Positions 1 through 52,729 are shown, counted from the stretch's first letter. The stretch is 64,000 nt of DNA from a virus (IMGVR_UViG_3300035670_000055:1-64000); one strand, 5' to 3'. The notes: generated by a model from the sequence alone, not told the origin. Program-made: numbers and translations.

Positions 1-1
1 T

Positions 2-223
2 GCTGATGGAACTGTATACGATACTTATTATATTAAATTTAATAATGTAGATAAATCAAGTGATACTTGGGGTGACTATGTAAAACAAGATTCTATGGTA
101 ATTATTGCTGTACCAATAGGTAGTGCTGCTTCTACAGCAATTCAAACTGTTCTTGTTGCTGGATTAGGAGCTGTTACATCTTCTAATGTTGTTCCAACTA
201 CCACTACTACAACAACAGTGTAA
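2..223 (+). CDS. 3' end of a structural gene (likely auxiliary capsid/decoration protein), ends PTTTTTTTV; truncated by window edge
   Basis: Open frame ADGTVYDTYYIKF...VVPTTTTTTTV* to TAA 221-223, followed by a strong terminator. Identity is inferred from its position before crAss-like tail genes. Confidence 0.6.
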   Translation, partial: ADGTVYDTYYIKFNNVDKSSDTWGDYVKQDSMVIIAVPIGSAASTAIQTVLVAGLGAVTSSNVVPTTTTTTTV

Positions 224-2322: not shown

Positions 2323-2556
2323 ATGTATTTAGTAGAAGAATATCCAAAAGGAAACCCTTTTGAAAACTCAAAATGTAAAAATTGTAGTGATCCAAGATTA
2401 GATACCTCATACAGTTATTATGAAGGTCCTAATCTTCCTGGTACAGGTATAAAAACTTGTGATTCTCTTACATTAGTTATACAGAAAATAGATAATGAGA
2501 TATTAAAAATAAAACAAGATCTTTTAGAAATTAAACAACAAATAAACCAATTATGA
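2323..2556 (+). CDS. small fibre-anchor/coiled-coil protein
   Basis: YEGPNLPGTGIKTCDSLTLVIQKID motif shared with the N-termini of ORFs 1233 and 40362. Confidence 0.6.
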   Translation: MYLVEEYPKGNPFENSKCKNCSDPRLDTSYSYYEGPNLPGTGIKTCDSLTLVIQKIDNEILKIKQDLLEIKQQINQL

Positions 2557-3008
2557 CAGTATTAATAACATTAACAACAGTAGGAGCAGATTGCTCATTA
2601 TTTGATATATATTCTAATATAGATGGATTTATTTCTGCATTTGAGACAGATGTTCCAAAATCTAGTTTATCTGCAGGGTTTAGTTCTGCAAATGTACCAG
2701 ATGGCACAACAATCATTAGAGTGAAAGCAAAAGGGGTCTGTACAAATTATATAGATATAACCCTATCTACTTCTACAACAACAACCACTACTACACTTCC
2801 TGCAACAAGTTTCTTTTGCTTTGAAGGTGAATGGAGTGAAGTTGACACAACCCATGATTGTCCTTCATTATGTGGACAGGTTACTTACATAGATGCTTTT
2901 GGAAACACACAAACAGAGACAGGAATAACTTCTGAAATGGGAGTTATATCAATAGAAGCACAATCAATAATTAGCACAATAGGCGTTAATGCTGTAACAT
3001 GTCCTTAA
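2553..3008 (+). CDS. two-domain beta protein with poly-Thr linker (putative virion decoration)
   Basis: ATGA overlap with the previous gene; STSTTTTTTTLP linker. Confidence 0.65.
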   Translation: MTVLITLTTVGADCSLFDIYSNIDGFISAFETDVPKSSLSAGFSSANVPDGTTIIRVKAKGVCTNYIDITLSTSTTTTTTTLPATSFFCFEGEWSEVDTTHDCPSLCGQVTYIDAFGNTQTETGITSEMGVISIEAQSIISTIGVNAVTCP

Positions 3009-6616: not shown

Positions 6617-9600
6617 ATGGCAGAACAAGATTCACAAAATAATATTACTCTCAATTATAATTTTGCTAATGGTGGATTAAATTTAGATCAAACTCCTAAT
6701 CAAATTCAGAAAGGGGTATTGACTTATGCTCTTAATGCAACTGTAGAGAGTTTTGATTATAATTCAATAAATTATCAAAATGAACAAGGAAATGATTTTT
6801 GTTTAAATTTTCCAGAAGGATATGTTTTAATTGGTAAATATTTTATTTCAGAACAAAACAAGCATGTATTTATGTTGGTAAATCCAGATAGCCAAAATTC
6901 TGAAATAGGCTATATGGAAAGCAACAACTGTAAATACAACACTATAGTAAATGCAAAGTGTTTAAACTTTGATATAAACTATCCTATACATAAAATTGTA
7001 CATAAAATTAGCAAGGAAGGGACAGAAATATATTGGACAGATAGTAAGAATTCTAGAAGATATTTAAATATTGATGCTTTTCCTAAAAAAATAAAAGAAG
7101 GTTCTTCTCTATGTAACCCAGAGTATACAGAAGAGTTAGATTGTAATAAGATAAAAGTACAACCAGATTTTAAAATTCCCACCTTAGAAATAAAAGAAAT
7201 AATAGGTGGAGGAAATATTATATCAGGAACATATCAGTTTGCTATACAATATTGCGATAGTATAGGAAGTCCATATACATCATATTATTCTATTACTAAT
7301 CCTACACCTATAGCTGATCCTACAATCACTACACAAAATTTTAACTATTCTGTAGGTAAATCAATTGTTGTAGAAGTAGATAATTTAGATACTTCTGGAC
7401 AAGCACAATATTTTAATTTAGCTGTAATAAAAACAATTAATGCTATCTCTTCTGTAGAATTAGTAGGAACATACTATATAGATAATATAAATAAAAAAAT
7501 TACATACACAGGACAACAAGTAGATAATATAAGATTAACTATAAATGATATTTTTGAGAAGTTTCCTCTTTATGATGTTGCTGATGATGTGACTGCTGCT
7601 CAAGATGTTTTAATTTGGAAAGGACTTACTTCTATAGACAGAATGAATTATCAATCTATAGCTAATAAAATTAAATTACAATGGGAGTCTTGGAGGATTC
7701 CTGCTACAGAAAATTATTCTGATGAATATAATGCTACAAATTTAAGAGGGTATTTACGAGATGAAGTATATCCTTTTGAAATAACTTTTTTATTAAAAAA
7801 TGGAAAACAAACCGATTCTTTTCACATACCAGGAAGAAAACTAACTCCTTCTGAAGAACTTCTTCCTAGTATAAATATAGACAATGAGGATAGCATAATC
7901 AATACATCCTCTAGCCCTTATTGGGAAACATACAATACAGCAACCATCATTAGTACCCATCCTAACTATCAACCAACAGAAGATTATAAAGGTCCCTATC
8001 AGTATGGAGAATTTGCATATTGGGAATCTTCAGAAACTTATCCTTGTAATTCTGAAGTTTGGGGAGATTTAGCAGGGAAACCCATAAGACATCATAAATT
8101 TCCAGATGTAAATATTAGTCCTATATTTGAATCTAAAACATTCATAGTTTCATCATCTATTCAAATGGGAAATTGCGCTGTATTTCCAATTGGTGTAAAA
8201 ATAGATAATTCTCAAATTGAAACATTAATAAATACTAGCAATCTTACTACTGAACAGAAAGCAGATATAGTTGGCTGGAAAATAGTAAGAGGAGATAGAG
8301 GAACAAACAAATCTATTGTAGCAAAAGGCATTTTAAGAAACGTAAACTCTTATGAAAGAGCAGGACAAACATATTTATATCCAAACTATCCATACAACGA
8401 TTTATCAGAAGATCCATTTTTAAACAGTAATAATAATGCATTTTCTGATATATGCGAAGAATTTAATATTAATGTAACACAATTAGATAATGAAGGAAAA
8501 GCAATCATCCGATATAATGATTGTAATACAAATAAAGAAACAACAACAACCTTAACATCTTTAGGTGATGTTAAATTTTGTTCTATTGGAAAACCAACAA
8601 TAGATTCTCCTGCAAAAGCAGAAATTGGAACAACTAGTTATGAGGTATGGAGAGTTTCTGTTGGAGACCAAGGATGTGCTGTTGGATGGGTAGATCCTAT
8701 AAATGGATATACAAGAGAGTGGCTAACAGGAGTGTGGCTTGGTTCTGGAGAAAGTAAAGTTATACACGTAGTAATTGGTTCTGGAGAACCTGATAGAGTT
8801 GATGGTAGAGGTAGATTATATAAAGAAAAATTAGAAACTGTTTATGGAAGTGGAAATTGTTCTATTAGTGCTTCTCAAGGAACTTCTAATATTGAACAAC
8901 TTTCTCATAGACAAGTATTTAATTCTCCAGAAACTTCTTTTGGACAACCATTTTTAGGAAATGTATTAAAACTTGAAAGTGTAATTTTTGGAGGAGGAAA
9001 GGCACATTTTGTAGAGGTAAAAAATAATGCAAAATATAAATTATTAACACAAGAAATTCAAATTGATGCTTTATTAAGTGCTAATGAATTAGGACATATT
9101 ACAAATCCTTTTGATGCTTCTGCATTCTTTGCTGCATATCAAGGTTATATAGAAATTTATTTACGTTCTATTAGTAGAAAGAATTTTGCATATTCTTATA
9201 ACTCAATTGCGGAATACAATTATTCAAAACCTATTCCTAATGGTGTAGGAGTAAAACAAAGATTACTTGATATAAAAAGATATATAATTCCTGGTGTACA
9301 ATCTATTGGGGATGATTATAACATCAATAATTACCAAAGGGAAACATCTGTATTTTTAAAAACAGATGTTACAAAAGATCCTTTACCATTACCAAATAAA
9401 ACAAACTCAATAATAAATGCTGTAACAGGAAAAAGTATTATTGAAGATAAATCTAGACATACAATTTCTGAGTTAGGCATTTGTTCTACTCCAGATATAG
9501 AAAAAGATATTACAACTCTTTCCTACTATGCATCAATTAAAAATATTTATTCAGGACAGTGGGGACAAATGTACTCATATGATACTATTGATACTGGCTA

Positions 9601-12028
9601 TCAAAAAATTATAGGAATAGATAACTCTGTAGATACCGTCTTTGGAGGAGATACATTCATTAGTAGATTTACTTTTAAAACAAAACTTCCTTTTTTCTTA
9701 GACAATAGGGTAGGAGCATCTGACGATTCTGATATTTATTATGATGAAATAGGAAACGTAGCTTATCCAAAATATTGGCATTCAGCAAGATCTGTTACAA
9801 AAAGTTACTTTTTGTCTAAAACAAAGGTACTTCCAAATATAATTTCTTATAAGGCGCATAACTTTGATTGCCCAAATAATCAAGGTACAGAGTCCTCTGG
9901 GTCAGTTGAAGGAACATTAACTGGTAATCCTAATAGAATGTATTATGATGGATATTTTTATTTATTTGCCTACGGTATTCCTAGTTTCTATTGTGAAAGT
10001 TCTTATAATGTAGATCTAAGACAGGCTTTTAACAGTAAAGAAGGTGACTTTTATCCTCATGTTAGTAAAGGAATTCCTGATGATTGGTTACAAGAAACAA
10101 ATGTTACAATAAATCAAGATAATACCTATTATTATAACACGACTTATTCTAAACAAAATAAAGAGAATACATTTACACATCTTCCTGTAGATTGGGAATC
10201 TGAAAGTTATACTAATTATCCATTTAGAGCAATTTATTCTGATTCTCAAAATACAAGTGCTGATGCAATCACTAATAATTGGTTAACTTATAGAGCATTA
10301 TCTTATTATGATTTTCCAAAAAGTTATGGAAAACTAATAAGTTTAGATGGTATACAGAATAGAGCAATTCTTGCTAGATTTGAAAACAAGAGCTTGTTAT
10401 ATAATAACTTATTAACTATTGATACAAGCAATCCACAATCTGCATATGTAGGAAATCCTAATATGTTTAGTGCTCCTCCGATAGACTTTGCAGAAACAGA
10501 TTTAGGTTATGTAGGTTCACAACATAAATTTCTATTAAAAATACCAGAAGGACAAGTAACAATAGATGCAAAAAGAGGACAAGTATTTATTATATCTGGA
10601 ACTTCTGTAACAGATATATCTGGATTTGGGTCTGGAATGAATAGATTCTTAACAGACAATTTAGATTTTGAAATATTAAAATATTTTCCAGATATAAATA
10701 TAGATAACCACTTTAAAGATTTTGGACTACATGGTGTATATGACTCTAAATTTGATAGAATAATAATAACAAAATTAGACTATATTCCATTAAGTAATGA
10801 GATTAAGTATAATAATAATAAAAAATATTTTTATATAAATGAAAATGTAGGAAATATTACTGTAGAAAAAATAATAGATGTAAAAAATAATTCATACTTT
10901 TGTAATAGGTCATGGACATTATCTTATTCAATAAATTTAAGAAAATGGATTTCTTTTCACAGTTATATTCCTAATTTTTATATAGCAGAGAACAATTTCT
11001 TTTACTCTGGAATAAATGGAGAATCAAGTGATTTTGAAGCCATTGCTGGAGAGGTAATTCCTATACCAACTACTACAACTACAACTACTAATTTTATTCC
11101 TCCATTTACAACCACAACAACTACAACTAGAGCATTAGATTGTAGATTAGAAGGAGAAGTAAGAATTACAGATTGTGAATTTAACGGAACAGCAATTATT
11201 ACTGTACCTCCAGATGTTCCTACTTGTCAAAGACCAGAAGGATTAGTTTATTCTTATTTTGTTACAGGATATACAACAACAGATCCTGTTACAGATGTAA
11301 CTTCTACAGGAAGTTCAATAGATGCTAGTAATGCTGCTGAATATTTAAACTCTCTTTCTGAAGGTACTACAGGAGTTAGTACTAAATTATTATTAGTAAC
11401 AATAGAAGGACTTAATGTAGGAGATAGTGTTTATTTATATAATGGTTCTGAAGACTGTACAACTATTCCTGACGGATGGTATTTTACAGAAGAAACAGCA
11501 TATAATCAGTACGTATTTAGAGTGGTGTCTGGAAGAATAACAGAAATATATAATTATATTCCTGTCACTACTACAACAACTACAACTATACCTATTACAA
11601 CTACAACTACAACAATAGTGTTAGATTGTACAATTGAAGGAACAGGAGTTATAATTACACCATCTACAACCACTACCACTACTACTACTACTATTGGAGA
11701 TAATTTATTATTTAAATTAATAAATCCGTTAAATAATCCTGCAGATGGTTACATAAGTAAAAATGATTATGAAGGAGGTCCTTATCTTACAATAAATACA
11801 TCAGGTATGTTAAATGGCGTTCTTAATACTGGGGATACATTTGCTGCAGTATTTAAAAATAATTCAACAACAGAAATTAGACAAGTTAGATATTTATATG
11901 AATCTTCAATTAGAGGAGTATTAAATGATACAACTTCATATGTAAATGTGAACGTTGGTGTAACTACTACAACTTTTACAAAAATAGATGGAGAAACTAT
12001 AACAATAACTTTAGAAGTTTTAAATTAA
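6617..12028 (+). CDS. tail muzzle/stabilisation protein (P22 gp10-like), with poly-Thr C-terminal extension
   Basis: 1803 aa; GYLRDEVYPF, FGGDTFISRF and WTLSYS...WISFHSYIP motifs typical of crAss-like muzzle proteins. Confidence 0.8.
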   Translation: MAEQDSQNNITLNYNFANGGLNLDQTPNQIQKGVLTYALNATVESFDYNSINYQNEQGNDFCLNFPEGYVLIGKYFISEQNKHVFMLVNPDSQNSEIGYMESNNCKYNTIVNAKCLNFDINYPIHKIVHKISKEGTEIYWTDSKNSRRYLNIDAFPKKIKEGSSLCNPEYTEELDCNKIKVQPDFKIPTLEIKEIIGGGNIISGTYQFAIQYCDSIGSPYTSYYSITNPTPIADPTITTQNFNYSVGKSIVVEVDNLDTSGQAQYFNLAVIKTINAISSVELVGTYYIDNINKKITYTGQQVDNIRLTINDIFEKFPLYDVADDVTAAQDVLIWKGLTSIDRMNYQSIANKIKLQWESWRIPATENYSDEYNATNLRGYLRDEVYPFEITFLLKNGKQTDSFHIPGRKLTPSEELLPSINIDNEDSIINTSSSPYWETYNTATIISTHPNYQPTEDYKGPYQYGEFAYWESSETYPCNSEVWGDLAGKPIRHHKFPDVNISPIFESKTFIVSSSIQMGNCAVFPIGVKIDNSQIETLINTSNLTTEQKADIVGWKIVRGDRGTNKSIVAKGILRNVNSYERAGQTYLYPNYPYNDLSEDPFLNSNNNAFSDICEEFNINVTQLDNEGKAIIRYNDCNTNKETTTTLTSLGDVKFCSIGKPTIDSPAKAEIGTTSYEVWRVSVGDQGCAVGWVDPINGYTREWLTGVWLGSGESKVIHVVIGSGEPDRVDGRGRLYKEKLETVYGSGNCSISASQGTSNIEQLSHRQVFNSPETSFGQPFLGNVLKLESVIFGGGKAHFVEVKNNAKYKLLTQEIQIDALLSANELGHITNPFDASAFFAAYQGYIEIYLRSISRKNFAYSYNSIAEYNYSKPIPNGVGVKQRLLDIKRYIIPGVQSIGDDYNINNYQRETSVFLKTDVTKDPLPLPNKTNSIINAVTGKSIIEDKSRHTISELGICSTPDIEKDITTLSYYASIKNIYSGQWGQMYSYDTIDTGYQKIIGIDNSVDTVFGGDTFISRFTFKTKLPFFLDNRVGASDDSDIYYDEIGNVAYPKYWHSARSVTKSYFLSKTKVLPNIISYKAHNFDCPNNQGTESSGSVEGTLTGNPNRMYYDGYFYLFAYGIPSFYCESSYNVDLRQAFNSKEGDFYPHVSKGIPDDWLQETNVTINQDNTYYYNTTYSKQNKENTFTHLPVDWESESYTNYPFRAIYSDSQNTSADAITNNWLTYRALSYYDFPKSYGKLISLDGIQNRAILARFENKSLLYNNLLTIDTSNPQSAYVGNPNMFSAPPIDFAETDLGYVGSQHKFLLKIPEGQVTIDAKRGQVFIISGTSVTDISGFGSGMNRFLTDNLDFEILKYFPDINIDNHFKDFGLHGVYDSKFDRIIITKLDYIPLSNEIKYNNNKKYFYINENVGNITVEKIIDVKNNSYFCNRSWTLSYSINLRKWISFHSYIPNFYIAENNFFYSGINGESSDFEAIAGEVIPIPTTTTTTTNFIPPFTTTTTTTRALDCRLEGEVRITDCEFNGTAIITVPPDVPTCQRPEGLVYSYFVTGYTTTDPVTDVTSTGSSIDASNAAEYLNSLSEGTTGVSTKLLLVTIEGLNVGDSVYLYNGSEDCTTIPDGWYFTEETAYNQYVFRVVSGRITEIYNYIPVTTTTTTTIPITTTTTTIVLDCTIEGTGVIITPSTTTTTTTTTIGDNLLFKLINPLNNPADGYISKNDYEGGPYLTINTSGMLNGVLNTGDTFAAVFKNNSTTEIRQVRYLYESSIRGVLNDTTSYVNVNVGVTTTTFTKIDGETITITLEVLN

Positions 12029-47165: not shown

Positions 47166-47303
47166 ATGAGTATACCAGCAAGACCTACTGGACAAGATCC
47201 ACAATCACAATTACTATGGCATATATCTAAACAATTAGATACGCTTATTAAAATTGTAAGTAAAAGCCCTTCTACAACTACAACAACTACCACTACAGTA
47301 TAA
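47166..47303 (+). CDS. 45-aa peptide with C-terminal Thr8-Val tail (not in ORF track)
   Basis: MSIPARPTGQDPQSQLLWHISKQLDTLIKIVSKSPSTTTTTTTTV*; Thr codons are mixed. Confidence 0.8.
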   Translation: MSIPARPTGQDPQSQLLWHISKQLDTLIKIVSKSPSTTTTTTTTV

Positions 47304-47329
47304 TGAGAGATGTAAAATTTATTAAGTAA
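47303..47329 (+). pseudogene. orphaned former 5' end of glycosyltransferase gene (MRDVKFIK*)
   Basis: TAATG-coupled start; cut off from ...TAQPDD by the HNH gene. Confidence 0.55.
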
Positions 47330-47390
47330 TCAATCAAATAGTATGATATTTCAAATTTTTTATTGTATATTTGTTAAATAAATAATAGAT

Positions 47391-47933
47391 ATGAAAAAAG
47401 AAATTTGGAAACCAGTAAAAAATTATGAATCTTATTATGAAGTTAGTAATGAAGGAAATATCAGATCAATTGAAAGAATTGTTGAACTCCCAATACATCA
47501 ATATCTTAAAAAGCAAAAAATGATAAAACAATTTAAAGATCGTCGTGGGTATTTTCATGTAAAGTTGTATAATGGACTTGGAGAATGTAAATCATTAACA
47601 ACTCATAGAATAGTTGCTTTAACTTTCATAGACAATCCAGAAGGTTTAATAGAAGTTAATCATATTGATCATAATAAGCATAATAATCATGTTGATAATC
47701 TTGAATGGATTACTAGGAGTGATAATATAAAACATTCATATATTCATAGAGATCCTAAAACTTATAAAGGCAGTGGGAATAAAAATGCTAAGTTAACAGA
47801 AGAGCAAGTTAAAAATATTAGAAAAGAATATAAAAATAATAAAATTACATATAAAGAACTTGCTTATAAAAATAATGTTGGAGTAACATTAATAGGATAT
47901 ATTGTTAATAATAAAATATGGAAACATGTCTAA
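47391..47933 (+). mobile_element. free-standing NUMOD4-HNH homing endonuclease with own promoter
   Basis: EIWKPV..YE..YEVSN.G.IRS; HR.VA..F, VNHIDHNKHNN...NLEW...DN..H; TATATTTG at 47366-47373. Confidence 0.9.
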
Positions 47934-48942
47934 ACCAATTATAATTACAGCACAGCCCGATGATCAATACTTTATTTGGCAAAATCATTTGTACATTGAA
48001 TCATGTTTAAACCAAGGATTTACTCAAGATCAAATACATATATTATTATACAAACCTAAAAATAGACAATTTAATAATAATTGGAATAAATTAAAAGATA
48101 TATATCCAGATATAAATATATTTTTATACGAAGATAAAGGAGTTCAACAATTCTTGGGAGTTTATATTCCTATACTAAGACCTCATATTCTTTGGCAGCA
48201 TTTTGAAGTTTATCCAGAATTAAAGGATAAAACAATTATTTATACAGATAGTGATATTCTTTGGTTAGATACATTAAATATAAATCATCTCTTATTAGAT
48301 AATATAAACTATGTAAGTGATGCCAGTTCTTATTTAAATTATTCATATTTTGAAAATAAATATAAACAAGTTATTCCTGAGAAATTAGAAGAGGCTAAGT
48401 CGGTAGATTTTCTAAAAGAAGTATGTAATATAGTAGGAATAGATAAAAAAATTGTAATAGATAATAATAATAACACTGGTGGAGTACAATATATTTTAAA
48501 AAATATAGATGTTGATTTTTGGAAAAAAGTTGAAACTGATGTGCTTAAAATAAGATTGTATCTTCAACAAGTAAATAAAATATATTTTAAAAGTGAGAAT
48601 GATGGCATACAATCATGGTGCGCAGATCTTTGGGCAGTACAATTTAATTTATGGTTTAGAAATTTAGAAACTAAAGTGGTAAAAGAATTAGATTTTGCTT
48701 GGGCTACAGAACCTATAGAAAAATTAAATTCTTGTACAATATTACATAATGCTGGAGTTGGAAGTAAATTTATGAATAATATTCCATATTTTTATAAAGG
48801 AGCATATCATACTGGTAATAGTCCTTTTTTAGATGAACATCTAGAAACAGTTATCAACAATGAACAATCTAAAAAACATTGTACATGGTATTATACTAAT
48901 AAATTATTAGAGTTAAAAAATAAATATAATATAAATTATTAA
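47926..48942 (+). CDS. GT-A glycosyltransferase resembling plant HPAT/SERGT1 protein O-glycosyltransferases
   Basis: YFIWQ, LRP, YTDSD (DxD), GG.QY and WCADLW, in the same order as the SERGT1/HPAT motifs (YFDWQ, NKP, LDADM, VGG, WISEMY; from recall). Confidence 0.7.
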   Translation: MSKPIIITAQPDDQYFIWQNHLYIESCLNQGFTQDQIHILLYKPKNRQFNNNWNKLKDIYPDINIFLYEDKGVQQFLGVYIPILRPHILWQHFEVYPELKDKTIIYTDSDILWLDTLNINHLLLDNINYVSDASSYLNYSYFENKYKQVIPEKLEEAKSVDFLKEVCNIVGIDKKIVIDNNNNTGGVQYILKNIDVDFWKKVETDVLKIRLYLQQVNKIYFKSENDGIQSWCADLWAVQFNLWFRNLETKVVKELDFAWATEPIEKLNSCTILHNAGVGSKFMNNIPYFYKGAYHTGNSPFLDEHLETVINNEQSKKHCTWYYTNKLLELKNKYNINY

Positions 48943-49022
48943 TAAAGATGTATTTATAATGCATGTTCCTTATTTAAGGAAGAGTGAATTTCGCTAATTT
49001 AAAAATAATAAATTTAATTAAA

Positions 49023-49202
49023 ATGAGTAACAAAACATTAAAAGCATTTGTCAGATTAGATGGACAAAATAGAGTGATTGCATCAAGTCTTATTCTTAGA
49101 AAAAATAAACCTAAGGTAGGTAGATGGAGAGAAATTGTAGCAAATGAATGCTGTATAACAAGTACAACAAGTACAACAACTGCCACATCTACAGGTAGAT
49201 AA
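49023..49202 (+). CDS. small basic protein with Thr/Ser-rich tail
   Basis: ATG 49023; ends CCITSTTSTTTATSTGR. Confidence 0.7.
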   Translation: MSNKTLKAFVRLDGQNRVIASSLILRKNKPKVGRWREIVANECCITSTTSTTTATSTGR

Positions 49203-49206
49203 TATT

Positions 49207-49623
49207 ATGGAATTATCAATATTTCCAGGTAGCATGAAACCTTCTAAAGTTTCTACAGAAGGACTAACATTAGAAACGATTGCTTCTAAGTTAACTTATT
49301 TTCAAGAACAAATACATTTACTTCATTGGCAAACTAATATGTATTCTGAACATAAAGCATTAGGTGTATTGTACGAATATATACAAGACTTTAAAGATGA
49401 ATTAATAGAAAAATTAATGGGATATACAGGAAAGAAACCTGCTATATATAAACTAGAACCACTTTCTACTTCTACATCTAATGTAGTAATAGATGAATTA
49501 CTTTCTTTTGCTAAATTATTAAAAGAATACGGAGAAATGAATTGTTACCAAGATGTATGTAATTTATCAGATTCATTATCTGGAGAAGCAGCTAAAGTAA
49601 AATATTTATTAACATTAACATAG
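49207..49623 (+). CDS. ferritin/Dps-like four-helix bundle protein
   Basis: LLHWQT...EHKAL..LYE....DELIE...KYLLTL. Confidence 0.75.
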   Translation: MELSIFPGSMKPSKVSTEGLTLETIASKLTYFQEQIHLLHWQTNMYSEHKALGVLYEYIQDFKDELIEKLMGYTGKKPAIYKLEPLSTSTSNVVIDELLSFAKLLKEYGEMNCYQDVCNLSDSLSGEAAKVKYLLTLT

Positions 49624-49629
49624 ACAAAT

Positions 49630-50457
49630 ATGCCTACATTTATAAAAACAGGACTTTGGGAAACTAGTACAACAGCACAAGTACCAAAAGGATGGTTAAA
49701 TTTAACAAAATTAATTAAAGATAATTCTGGAGGAAGTTCAGGAAATTACGTGCCTGTTATAGAGGTAACTTATGATGAATTAGTTAATTTAAAAAATACT
49801 TCTTCGTTAAAAAAAGGTCAGAATTATCTATTAACCGATTATGAAACAACTTATATACAACCAGTAACAAATGTAAATAAGAGTAGTGGAGTAGTAGAAC
49901 CTTTAATAATTACAGCAACTGACGTAGATAAACTACACAATCAATGTAAATCTACATTATACCCTCAAGATATTGTATTTTATGAAATAACAGGAGATAC
50001 GGGAGAATGGTATGGAACAGAAGGTTTCACAAAAGGTAAAATTTACAGAAGAATAGACACTAAAAAAAATAATGACATAGGTACAGATTGGAGGCATGTA
50101 AAATATGATAGAAATGGTGTAGATAAATTATTATTTGAAGATTACGCTGACGTTTATAACAACAAAATAGAAACTTATTATTTGTTCAATAATGTAATAG
50201 GAAATGGTTTCTCAAATAATATAATAGGAGATTATTTCCAAAACAATACAATAGGAATTAGTTTCCAGAATAACGGAACTACCTCAATTCCTTTAGTTTC
50301 AGCACACACCGAGTTTAGAAATAGGCTAAGTAACGTTACAAGTTCTACTGAAATTAAAAACCAAAATATAGATGTAGTAGTTTTTAACTCACCTAATGGA
50401 ACACTAAAACAAAGATATTATGACGATTCAAATAATTTAGTAATAAATAATTTATAA
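49630..50457 (+). CDS. fibre-like/structural protein
   Basis: EVTYDELVNL...L..G..Y..TD motif shared with ORF 40362; N.IG..F.N repeats. Confidence 0.55.
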   Translation: MPTFIKTGLWETSTTAQVPKGWLNLTKLIKDNSGGSSGNYVPVIEVTYDELVNLKNTSSLKKGQNYLLTDYETTYIQPVTNVNKSSGVVEPLIITATDVDKLHNQCKSTLYPQDIVFYEITGDTGEWYGTEGFTKGKIYRRIDTKKNNDIGTDWRHVKYDRNGVDKLLFEDYADVYNNKIETYYLFNNVIGNGFSNNIIGDYFQNNTIGISFQNNGTTSIPLVSAHTEFRNRLSNVTSSTEIKNQNIDVVVFNSPNGTLKQRYYDDSNNLVINNL

Positions 50458-50486
50458 TAAAATCAATATTAGGAATAGTATAATGT

Positions 50487-50771
50487 ATGGAAGTAGTAAA
50501 GAAATTTTTTCCTAAAATAATGTCTGAAAACGACACAAATTATTTTGCACATTTGGAAGGTGTAATATCTTCAATAGATGAATTAGCTAATGTACAAATT
50601 ACTAAGAATCCACATTCTTATCAATTTAGAATAGCTCCTTCTATTCCCAGATATTCACAGCCGCTATTGCAGGAAATATTAAAATTTCATAATTTATACA
50701 AAATAAAATTAAATCTTTCTAAGAGTATAAGAACTTCTTCTACAATATTTTTTGAGATAGAGTTAAAATAA
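50487..50771 (+). CDS. hypothetical protein
   Basis: 94-aa ORF in the operon. Confidence 0.6.
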   Translation: MEVVKKFFPKIMSENDTNYFAHLEGVISSIDELANVQITKNPHSYQFRIAPSIPRYSQPLLQEILKFHNLYKIKLNLSKSIRTSSTIFFEIELK

Positions 50772-50810
50772 TTTTGTACATTTGTAATATAATTTTAAAA
50801 CCAAAATAAT

Positions 50811-51029
50811 ATGGCAACTTATGACCCTAGTAAAAAGTACACATGGTCTCCAGAAGACAAATTTGAATTCTCTGGAGCAGAATTTGGATTAATTCTTAAT
50901 ACATTCAGAAAAATTTTAAGTACACCAGAAGCAGAAGTAATTCTATTGGCAAATCAAGCTAATATGATTATTGAAAAAAAGATTTCTGAAGCTGTAGAGA
51001 ACGATGTAGTGAAAGAATCACAAGAATAA
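50811..51029 (+). CDS. hypothetical protein
   Basis: 72-aa ORF preceded by a TACATTTG element. Confidence 0.6.
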   Translation: MATYDPSKKYTWSPEDKFEFSGAEFGLILNTFRKILSTPEAEVILLANQANMIIEKKISEAVENDVVKESQE

Positions 51030-51064
51030 AAATAAAGCCCTCTTAATTGAGGGCTTATTTATTT
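51030..51064. terminator. bidirectional terminator between convergent arms
   Basis: AAGCCCTC-TTAATT-GAGGGCTT flanked by A-rich and T-rich runs. Confidence 0.85.
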
Positions 51065-51718
51065 TATAAGAAAATTAGAAGTTGATATATTATTACCATG
51101 AATATTCCAGATAATATTATCCTTGTTAGTTGTTGGAAAATGTTTTAGTCCTTTTTTCTCCCAATAAATTCTCCATAACATATCATCATTCCACCCAACT
51201 TCTTCATCAGGAATATTTAAAATACATTCTAATCCTTTTTTATTAAAAGCAAAAGTCATAGGCATGTGATAATTACTGTTATTAGGATTACCTCCTAAAT
51301 TATCATAATTTCTATCTGTAAACATAAATATTCCATTCAGTTGTGTAGAAATTCTAGAAGAAGTGGTAGATATATCTGGATTATTTGTAAATGTTTCTAC
51401 GACATTTTTTACATAATCCTTTTTGTATATATCGTCATCATCCATCTTAATAAATATATCATACTGTTCATAATTTGGTACATTTTTTATAGCAAGTATT
51501 TCATTAAAGTGAATATACTTATTTCCTGATTTTGTTACTATTAATTTATCATCTAATAAATCATCGTATATAGGAGAGAAGTTTTGATCATTCCCTCCAT
51601 CTGATACAATGTTTACACTATGTACAATATTCTGATAAGACTGATTCTTTACATTAAGAATACATTGTCTTAACATATATGGTCTATTGTATGAGCATGT
51701 AAAAATTAAAACTTTCAT
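51059..51718 (-). CDS. glycosyltransferase family 2
   Basis: IFTCSYNRP..L..CI..V.NQ, SDG, KMDDDDIY; start ATG 51718 (TAATG overlap). Confidence 0.85.
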   Translation of the reverse strand: MKVLIFTCSYNRPYMLRQCILNVKNQSYQNIVHSVNIVSDGGNDQNFSPIYDDLLDDKLIVTKSGNKYIHFNEILAIKNVPNYEQYDIFIKMDDDDIYKKDYVKNVVETFTNNPDISTTSSRISTQLNGIFMFTDRNYDNLGGNPNNSNYHMPMTFAFNKKGLECILNIPDEEVGWNDDMLWRIYWEKKGLKHFPTTNKDNIIWNIHGNNISTSNFLIK

Positions 51719-52434
51719 TACCAAATATGTGCTACATTACTAAAACATTCTTGATACCCATTAAATTTAATTAAAGGTTTATACTTTTTATCTTTATTCA
51801 TCTTTTTTAGTTTATTTTCTAGATTATATATTTTATTACAACTATCTTCTATAATTTTTATTATAGAATAATTATAAGGCATTTCTTTTTTAGATTTAAA
51901 TCTTTTTTCTATTGTTTGAAAAGTTCTTCCAATTTTATAAAATTCTTCAAAATCATTCCAACATTTTATAATATATATTTTATATGTATGAAAATTTTTT
52001 GATTCTTTAGCAGACTTTTCCCAGTTTTTTTCAGACCACCCTGTTGGATTATTAGAATGTAAAATAGAACTTTTTATATTTTTACATTTGGGACATCCTT
52101 TTTTATTTAAATGATCATTTGCTTCTTGTAAAAAATTACCATGAATTTTACAAGTTATTGTTATTTTATTATGTGCTGTTGTATAGTTAATAAAATCATA
52201 AGTATACTTAAAATTATGTATTAAATTAGCTTTATTAGAATAATATTCATTTTTATTTAGAGCAGTATTTATAGAAGGTATTACACCATTCATTAAATGT
52301 CCTTTTCTTATTTTACATAATCCTAAAGAAGTTTCAACTATAACATATAAATTATTAATTCCTACCTCTTCTAAAATAATAATAGAAGAGGTAGGGAATT
52401 TATTTTTATATTTTGTTATAAAAGAATCTAACAT
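51718..52434 (-). mobile_element. free-standing endonuclease (Zn-ribbon repeats plus GIY-YIG/T5orf172-like C-terminus)
   Basis: ITCKIHG.F....DHL...GCPKC; KIYII...YKIGRT...EKRF...E...K. Confidence 0.8.
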
Positions 52435-52438
52435 TTTA

Positions 52439-52729
52439 TCACCACACATGCGCTACATCAAATACAGACACCATGATAACTTCTTTATCTTCCGATAAAG
52501 GAATTTTTACAACTCCTCTAGCAGCAGAACTAGGATCAATCATAACTTCATCTCCAGGAACAATATGTTCTACACCATTTCCTACAGCATATACTTTTAA
52601 TCTTCCATAAGTTCTAAGCTTTTCTTTTTCTAATTCTATTTTAGATGCTTCATCTAATACTAAATTACTTTTTGGTTCTTCTGGTAATTCCAGATAAATT
52701 CTAGTTCCTAATAATTTTTTAAATTCCAT
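52439..52729 (-). CDS. GroES-like co-chaperonin
   Basis: KLLGTRIYL...KVYAVGNGV..IVPGDEV...DV. Confidence 0.65.
   Translation of the reverse strand: MEFKKLLGTRIYLELPEEPKSNLVLDEASKIELEKEKLRTYGRLKVYAVGNGVEHIVPGDEVMIDPSSAARGVVKIPLSEDKEVIMVSVFDVAHVW

Follow-up and report, generated by a model that had tools for sequence, protein, structure and literature searches.

Glycosylation of virion proteins has been described for the mycobacteriophages Che8, Corndog, and Myrna (Freeman et al., 2023, as cited in PMC11256854 and PMC12363180). The glycosyltransferases (GTs) encoded by these phages are reported to modify capsid and tail-tube subunits in the cytoplasm, and the particle carries a glycan coat. 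A ten-phage survey elsewhere reported virion glycosylation in none of the phages (PMC12894461). Here, we analyzed a 64,000-nucleotide stretch of viral DNA (IMGVR_UViG_3300035670_000055:1-64000; hereafter the window), which represents the first 64 kb of a crAss-like phage record with a total length of 115,492 bp. In the window, a GT gene (47926-48942; the core GT) shares the late region with genes for proteins with poly-threonine (poly-Thr) tracts, and comparisons with other phages make it likely that the locus encodes a module for the cytoplasmic O-glycosylation of proteins, with these tracts of virion proteins as its targets. To our knowledge, the experimental demonstration of virion glycosylation is limited to a few mycobacteriophages, and a literature search found nothing on glycosylated crAss-like virions, on this GT family, or on an acceptor role of poly-Thr tails. 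Phage virion glycosylation as such is already known from the mycobacteriophages; the phrog_4417-type GT family, the poly-Thr acceptors, and the crAss-like setting would be new.

The core glycosyltransferase and the poly-Thr proteins

The window has a G+C content of ~27%. Its first ~51 kb carry late and structural genes on the plus strand, followed by replication genes on the minus strand. The components of the putative module, which include two small open reading frames (sORF1 and sORF2), are as follows.

47926-48942, plus strand: core GT, 338 aa, with a GT-A fold and a DxD motif; phrog_4417; ATG at 47926 and stop at 48942
1-217, plus strand: C-terminal end of a 368-aa capsid-surface protein (full gene at 114365-115471 of the complete 115,492-bp record, G000), ending in PTTTTTTTV-stop; tract at 197-217; candidate acceptor
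2553-3008, plus strand: 151-aa protein with an internal STSTTTTTTT linker (tract at 2766-2795) between two small domains; candidate acceptor
6617-12028, plus strand: 1803-aa virion structural protein (phrog_37948, 5e-113) with five poly-Thr linkers (11069-11692) between small C-terminal domains; candidate acceptor
47166-47303, plus strand: sORF1, 45 aa, with a ~35-aa N-terminal module (MxIPxRxIG...LLWxISKQLD) followed only by an S-T8-V tail; ends in STTTTTTTTV-stop
49023-49202, plus strand: sORF2, 59 aa, with a ~45-aa N-terminal module (...KPKVGRWxEI..ECC) followed by a Thr/Ser tail; ends in ...TSTTSTTTATSTGR-stop
51059-51724, minus strand: GT2-family GT, 221 aa (PF00535, 33.8 bits against a cut-off of 23.3, E = 4e-8), with a DDDD motif at residues 95-98

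The first-pass annotation of this region had pointed out the DxD enzyme, the Thr-tailed small ORFs, the GT2 at a distance of 2 kb, and the other poly-Thr tracts, and all were recovered at the coordinates it gave.

The core GT was modeled with AlphaFold (AF2) from an 80-sequence alignment (A1), and the model has a predicted local distance difference test (pLDDT) score of 97.3. Foldseek and an independent VIA search both confirmed a GT-A superfamily fold, with 235 Foldseek matches at E <= 1e-3, every listed one being a GT-A enzyme, and more than 100 GT-A chains of the PDB at Z >= 8 in VIA. The top matches (Z 13-14) are glycogenin (1zcu), Skp1 alpha-GalT (6mw8), LgtC (1g9r), WbbM, UGGT, and GlyE (5gvv), which align over ~210-250 residues with 7-11% identity. 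Members of family GT8 have Z scores of 13.9 (1zcu), 13.6 (1g9r), 13.0 (5gvv), and 12.8 (3tzt), and GT24, GT77-like, and GT6 enzymes are within one Z unit of them. The YTDSD motif contains D108 and D110, both of which are invariant across the 80 homologs, as are H274, Q229, and K291. The latter three residues form a candidate catalytic set, and the order D108-x-D110, Gln, His, and Lys resembles that of the catalytic set of retaining GT8 enzymes. The protein has no transmembrane segment (maximum KD19 of 0.94) and is soluble.

For sequence families, the core GT matches the phrog_4417 profile with E = 1.4e-47 (residues 7-326 against profile positions 4-287 of 293). This phage family is unannotated ('unknown function') and comprises at least 739 cluster representatives. 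Natural fusions of the core domain to GT2, GT25-like, or Methyltransf_24 (sugar-type methyltransferase) domains occur. No Pfam family was matched by the core GT at E <= 0.1, and NCBIfam and PDB sequence searches, with the single sequence as well as with the 80-sequence profile, gave nothing usable; the NCBIfam matches are weak and point toward polysaccharide-type enzymes. The only PDB sequence matches, to TAL-effector repeats, were rejected as chance. Glyco_transf_8 (PF01501) is absent from the families matched by the 80 relatives, so that GT8 membership by sequence was not assigned. Based on the model, the protein is filed as a GT-A enzyme of phrog_4417 that has a GT8-like architecture, and it is not placed in a CAZy family.

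Among the proteins with poly-Thr tracts, the 368-aa protein is encoded three genes downstream of the major head protein, which matches phrog_11589. Its best fold match is a 333-aa chain (7qof_a) of the phicrAss001 icosahedral capsid (7QOF; E = 9e-8), with the next unrelated match at 2e-2. This result agrees with its earlier description as capsid-associated, and the phage is assigned to the crAss-like group because this protein folds like the phicrAss001 capsid chain. The 368-aa protein is a candidate acceptor that would be present in many copies per capsid. Its Thr tail is kept in all 80 IMG/VR relatives, and among relatives in the clade of the window, all three with a completeness of 90% or more have the GT. 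No family was matched by the 151-aa protein, and the PHROGs label of the 1803-aa protein, which had been named a muzzle protein at first pass, is 'virion structural protein' only.

The Thr codons of the tracts are mixed (ACA 30, ACT 29, and ACC 6), for which reason DNA slippage was rejected as their origin. Runs of at least seven Thr are expected by chance in this proteome only ~7e-5 times, which places the tracts about four orders of magnitude beyond chance. The mixed codons and this low expectation indicate that the poly-Thr tracts are selected at the protein level.

Several other features of these proteins were observed. Cys often flanks the Thr tracts (ECC-N-T7; C-I-TTTSTTTT; T7-RALDC...), both at 11069-11692 of the window and in the randomly sampled poly-Thr loci L032, L058, L076, L082, L103, L113, L123, L124, and L147 (L-numbers denote related or sampled loci). 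At the end of the large Thr-linker proteins is a small domain that contains Cys, and 67-107 residues separate the last tract from the stop. Variants of the capsid-surface protein that have no tail end, for example, in ...GLGAVTSL-stop, and one cluster of such variants holds 504 member sequences at 96% identity.

Co-occurrence of the transferase and Thr tails across phages

Homologs of the core GT were found by tblastn in 77 of 50,697 phage records, all labeled as 'hypothetical protein' and mostly from phages of Gram-positive hosts. In all 10 lineages examined, the GT adjoins Thr-rich tails, which are located on capsid, tail-tube, fibre, and small proteins. The tails on major capsid proteins (MCPs), major tail proteins (MTPs), and other proteins are distributed as follows.

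Lactococcus phage 1706: the capsid/protease protein and the 'major structural protein' both end in T9-10-HHD-stop, and the GT is the next gene
Lacticaseibacillus R3.3: Thr tails on the MCP and the MTP
Enterococcus 4995_1: Thr tail on the MCP
Enterococcus 9183: Thr tail on the MTP, plus an out-of-frame Thr ORF just past the MCP stop
Staphylococcus F1 and TPWB06: Thr tail on the tail tube (MTP)
Clostridium phiCTP1: Thr tracts on three structural proteins (gp4, gp11, and gp18)
Lactobacillus Bacchae: three small Thr-tailed proteins around the GT
Levilactobacillus ENFP1: (TTVAP)n repeats
Chryseobacterium MA9V-3: two Thr-tract proteins directly upstream of the GT

As a reverse test, IMG/VR was scanned for (ACN)9, and the first 118 loci returned were taken unselected, with 120 poly-Glu loci as the control. 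The GT is present in nine of the 118 loci and in none of the controls (Fisher p = 0.0015, a value that overstates independence, given that the nine loci probably are not all independent and maybe represent few related lineages). Relative to the whole-genome base rate of 0.15%, the binomial p-value for the (ACN)9 loci is 3e-13. In each of the nine loci, the GT gene is on the same strand as, and directly downstream of, a gene whose 558-2069 aa product contains between one and seven Thr tracts.

Two paired contrasts point in the same direction. Among Coetzeevirus and its kin, R3.3 has the GT as well as Thr tails on the MCP and tail tube, whereas the homologous proteins of Sabazios, phiJL-1, WC29P3, and BCJA1c lack the tracts and the GT is absent from the whole record. 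Similarly, 4995_1 has both the GT and a tail, whereas BMBtp13, PK5.2, and A40 have neither. These comparisons indicate that tails and GT were gained together. Taken together, the 10 lineages, the reverse test, and the contrasts bear out the co-occurrence of this GT with poly-Thr across phages that had been anticipated at first pass.

In some of these phages, Thr-rich sequence is also present in another reading frame. In Enterococcus phage 9183 (MT939241, L024:6794-6871), the MCP stop at 6794 is followed by a 24-codon out-of-frame Thr/Ser-rich frame (EPTTTTSTTKATTTTTSTSTSTTTTTLAEG-stop) that precedes the GT gene. This frame may be reached by a programmed frameshift that gives a fraction of the capsid subunits a Thr tail. 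In TPWB06 (L029:7155-7917) and Staphylococcus phage vB-SscS-F1 (L028:7194-7916), the MTP ends in ...T9-P-stop, and an overlapping ORF in another frame adds ~60 residues of poly-Thr blocks, which looks like a frameshift extension of the tail tube that is made up of Thr tracts. The pieces of this extension are annotated as separate small genes in the record of vB-SscS-F1.

Small ORFs, GT2, and the neighboring cassette

Three further genes are located around the components listed above.

47391-47933, plus strand: HNH/NUMOD4 homing endonuclease (PF07463, 2e-14; PF13392; phrog_59, 5e-44)
49630-50457, plus strand: 275-aa fibre-like protein with a third conserved N-terminal module (MPTFIKTGLWE...) and no poly-Thr
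51718-52449, minus strand: T5orf172/GIY-YIG-type endonuclease (phrog_681, 8e-30), inserted between a GroES-like gene (52439-52729) and the GT2

The core GT had been described as sitting between the two small ORFs. Both Thr-tailed ORFs do flank it, but the HNH endonuclease intervenes on the sORF1 side, such that sORF1 and the core GT are not strictly adjacent. This endonuclease is found at the same site in four relatives (L005-L008) and is missing from most others, and it is not considered part of the glycosylation system. In relatives, the GroES-like gene is 1.3-1.9 kb upstream of the GT2, or directly adjoins it in L354.

Full-length homologs of sORF1 and sORF2 were found in 21 related IMG/VR loci, in which the identity of the core GT is 44-74%, and both ORFs are therefore regarded as real genes. 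A homolog of sORF2 is directly downstream of the GT in nearly all of the 21 loci. Homologs of sORF1 occur in 15 related loci and are upstream of the GT, often in multiple copies, compared with a single copy in this genome. Several relatives of sORF1 have a long C-terminal domain past the Thr linker (Pel9A beta-helix, UspA1 repeats, or Fib_succ_major), and those of sORF2 have up to three T7 blocks or long C-terminal domains, with a conserved Cys pair just before the Thr tract. With the modules of both ORFs heading proteins of 130-610 aa in relatives, the N-terminal modules look like virion anchors, and the poly-Thr would be a linker. In this phage and most relatives, the two proteins are cut down to an anchor plus a Thr tail, which implies that the tail itself is functional. 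sORF1 is a candidate acceptor or glycan-carrying 'hair'.

Both in the window (49630-50457) and in L003, L009, L013, and L018, the third N-terminal module (MPTFIKTGLWE... / MATFIKAGFWQK...) is found on proteins of 210-721 aa whose C-termini vary. In relatives, proteins with the N-terminus of the 275-aa protein have lengths of 243-721 aa. Together with the modules of sORF1 and sORF2, the arrangement identifies the region as an apparent cassette of swappable 'anchor plus variable domain' proteins.

The GT2 has no hydrophobic segment and is soluble. No match was found with tblastn in phage isolates, and 242 homologs were found in metagenomes. In eight of 20 viral loci from a different lineage, GT2 homologs with 45-52% identity adjoin or overlap a phrog_4417-type GT, and the pair comes after two to four proteins with poly-Thr tracts. 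The GT2 is immediately upstream of the GT and overlaps its start in seven of the eight loci; in L361, a GT2-like domain is downstream. An initial reading of the GT2 as unrelated to the system, based on its absence from isolates and from most of the related large contigs, was revised once this adjacency had been found. The GT2-GT neighborhood persists despite rearrangement, which is good evidence that both belong to one pathway, and the GT2 is a candidate second-step enzyme.

Other putative tailoring genes are present in the same region of relatives.

L018 and L022: GT2
L022: methyltransferase and GT4/GT9 fusion
L020: GT6 and Fringe-like GT
L003: sulfotransferase with APS kinase

In the last of these, a 114-kb relative, the fibre cassette near the core GT (L003:9675-11864) encodes a sulfotransferase (PF13469/PF00685), a GT9-like protein, and an APS kinase (PF01583), which hints at sulfated virion glycans. 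A conserved core enzyme with variable tailoring is the pattern expected of an initiating transferase with a diversifying glycan, and it is from this pattern that we infer the order of the enzymes.

Apart from the cassette, the C-terminus encoded at the two ends of the record (1-217 of the window and 115249-115471 of G000) is the same except for at least one substitution (P-I-G vs. P-T-G). An exact terminal repeat was rejected given that the ends are near-identical and differ by this substitution; the overlap probably reflects a circular or permuted genome that was assembled from a mixed population. A megablast search with 12 kb of the window found no match in the phage collection.

Competing explanations and comparison with known systems

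In the explanation that we consider likely, the plus-strand structural operon would produce, late in infection, the poly-Thr proteins (the capsid-surface auxiliary protein, the 151-aa and 1803-aa proteins, sORF1, and sORF2) together with the soluble GT-A enzyme (47926-48942). With the metal-binding DxD...H and the Q/K of retaining GT8-like transferases, this enzyme would transfer the first sugar from a host nucleotide-sugar to Thr hydroxyls of the tracts, after which the GT2 (51059-51724) would add a further sugar. In related phages, the glycan may be varied by the GT6, Fringe-like, GT4/GT9, methyltransferase, and sulfotransferase/APS kinase genes. The assembled particle would then have a dense mucin-like glycan brush over the capsid, fibres, and linkers, and might benefit from protection against proteases or antibodies, from linkers that are stiff and hydrated, or from adhesion or anti-fouling. 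The genes, the fold, the conserved residues, the conserved synteny, and the co-occurrence across phyla are shown in this scheme, and the acceptor, the sugar, the retaining chemistry, the enzyme order, and the benefit are inferred. Comparative genomics strongly supports the proposal made at first pass that the phage GT and GT2 glycosylate Thr tracts of the virion; its division into initiating and extending roles is a tentative assignment.

Several observations weigh against this explanation. Nine of the 120 closest homolog clusters (P-numbers) of the capsid-surface protein have no Thr tail (P0391-P0395, P0400, P0403, P0440, and P0447); a back-translated pattern scan for these variants in viral contigs gave no match. 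Of five related large contigs, four lack the GT2 of the window, including three with a completeness of at least 99%, which makes this enzyme accessory rather than an obligate partner. Among the sampled poly-Thr loci, 109 of 118 lack this GT, and such tracts thus do not need this enzyme, while the nine positive loci have the limited independence mentioned above. Moreover, the fold cannot name the acceptor, and the lipopolysaccharide (LPS) and lipooligosaccharide (LOS) enzymes WbbM and LgtC match equally well. Finally, the case for virion glycosylation in this phage is one of genomic association.

In an alternative that we regard as unlikely, the core GT and GT2 modify an envelope glycan of the host (LOS/LPS, capsule, or teichoic acid), for example, to block superinfection or to prevent progeny from sticking to debris, and the poly-Thr tracts are plain flexible linkers. 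LgtC (LOS) and WbbM (O-antigen) are among the best fold matches (Z 13.4-13.6), which leaves the fold equivocal on the LPS-modifying role that the first-pass annotation had raised as a counter-indication. GT2 enzymes commonly build polysaccharides, in agreement with the weak NCBIfam matches, and the occurrence of poly-Thr linkers in many loci without this GT also fits. However, both are soluble enzymes for which no partner of the Wzx, Gtr, or lipid-carrier type was found. In siphophages and in the clade of the window, the GT is part of the late structural operon. The same family is found in phages of Gram-positive and Gram-negative hosts, which have unrelated envelopes, and always beside Thr tails, the joint gain of which with the GT is evident in the paired contrasts.

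Another alternative is that sORF1 and sORF2 are precursors of ribosomally synthesized and post-translationally modified peptides (RiPPs), similar to glycocins, which the GT would convert to small released glycopeptides rather than virion parts. The two small ORFs adjoin a modifying enzyme, and the Cys pair of sORF2 is conserved just before the Thr tract. Nonetheless, the occurrence of the same N-terminal modules at the head of depolymerase/adhesin-type proteins in relatives fits virion anchors and not leader peptides, no protease, exporter, or immunity gene was seen, and in other lineages the Thr tails are on major capsid and tail-tube proteins. These patterns make a RiPP-like origin very unlikely. 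Least credible is a scenario in which the GT glycosylates phage DNA at a hypermodified base and its position by Thr-tailed proteins is coincidental: soluble phage GTs acting on DNA are well known from T-even phages and the fold is compatible with a nucleic-acid acceptor, but no thymidylate-synthase/hydroxymethylase family (PF00303) was found in the 115-kb genome (the control search was positive in 10 of 14 genomes), the DNA-modifying role that the first-pass annotation had raised as a counter-indication is not supported, and the gene is in late structural rather than replication modules in most lineages examined (Lactobacillus phage Bacchae being an exception), has multi-step glycan enzymes including a sulfotransferase and methyltransferases as fusion partners and neighbors, and is linked to poly-Thr by strong statistics.

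Beyond the single phage, the presumed decoration of virion proteins on poly-Thr leads to a broader proposal, which we hold with moderate confidence. The poly-Thr tails and linkers would be a portable 'glyco-tag' and phrog_4417 its dedicated phage transferase, with tag and enzyme moving together between unrelated Bacteroidota and Firmicutes phages (crAss-like podophages, siphophages, and Herelleviridae) and lineage-specific enzymes, including those for sulfation, diversifying the glycan. If so, mucin-like glycosylated virions would be widespread in nature and not a curiosity of mycobacteriophages. If the module works as proposed, a phrog_4417-type GT next to Thr-tailed structural proteins would serve as a simple sequence rule by which glycosylated particles could be predicted from genomes. 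The range of glycosylated virions would then include crAss-like phages as well as phages that infect lactic acid bacteria, enterococci, staphylococci, and clostridia, and a function would be assigned to a large unannotated family. It would also provide a natural tag-and-enzyme pair for glyco-engineering of phage surfaces. Further implications would concern how phages persist in mucus and in environmental matrices, how the immune system recognizes them during phage therapy, and what accounts for the high frequency of low-complexity Thr tracts among virion proteins. Because several carriers of the GT are in culture, the proposal can be tested directly.

Among known enzymes, the plant HPAT/SERGT1 proteins (GT95/GT96) resemble the proposed system in concept, as they put sugars onto low-complexity tracts rich in hydroxy-amino acids. 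Kinship with these enzymes had been suggested at first pass and was not upheld, given that the window protein has no Pfam match and its best folds are of the GT8/GT24 type. HPAT (PF23452) is the Pfam family most often touched by relatives of the core GT, with three of 80 relatives and a best E of 0.012, all below the cut-off (23.9 bits), and one neighboring Atlas cluster has HPAT on 10% of its members. A search for HPAT in the phage's own genome at E <= 10 gave nothing, which is a weak negative in that the control genomes gave no match either, and no GT95/GT96 structures appeared in the fold searches with the core GT. These results amount to a faint hint of kinship at most. HPAT and SERGT1 are membrane-anchored Golgi enzymes; the core GT is soluble by contrast.

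The giant viruses offer a parallel in that virus-encoded GT-A enzymes (PBCV-1 A064R and Mimivirus R699) glycosylate virion proteins independently of the host, and both appear among the fold matches (2p6w, Z 10.9; 9dyt, Z 10.1). However, these are viruses of eukaryotes with other acceptors (N-linked atypical sequons and fibrils), and the structural similarity is lower. Mucin-type O-glycosylation by ppGalNAc-T (GT27) likewise involves a GT-A enzyme with DxD and the dense modification of Thr-rich tandem tracts, which results in stiff, protease-resistant, hydrated segments. The core GT differs in having neither a lectin domain nor a secretory pathway, and no ppGalNAc-T is among its top fold matches. 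The label 'mucin-type' given at first pass is apt as an analogy and does not extend further.

Closer in structure are the GT8-type enzymes (glycogenin, LgtC, Gat1/Skp1 alpha-GalT, and GlyE), which the core GT matches in fold at Z 13-14 over ~210-250 residues and whose order of DxD, His, Gln, and Lys it appears to follow. Glycogenin, Gat1, and GlyE are cytoplasmic enzymes with protein acceptors; those of GlyE are the Ser/Thr-rich repeats of serine-rich-repeat proteins. In comparison, the core GT has only 7-11% identity to these enzymes and is longer (338 aa vs. ~260) through extra helical insertions.

The mycobacteriophage system has the function that is proposed here for the phrog_4417-type module. 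According to PMC11256854, the GT genes of those mycobacteriophages are near the right genome end, away from the structural genes, whereas the GT described here is beside its presumed substrates. Moreover, the enzyme belongs to a different and unannotated GT family (phrog_4417), and explicit poly-Thr tags and linkers are the presumed acceptors. Finally, the hosts of mycobacteriophages are Actinobacteria, whereas the carriers of this GT are phages of Bacteroidota and Firmicutes, including a crAss-like phage.

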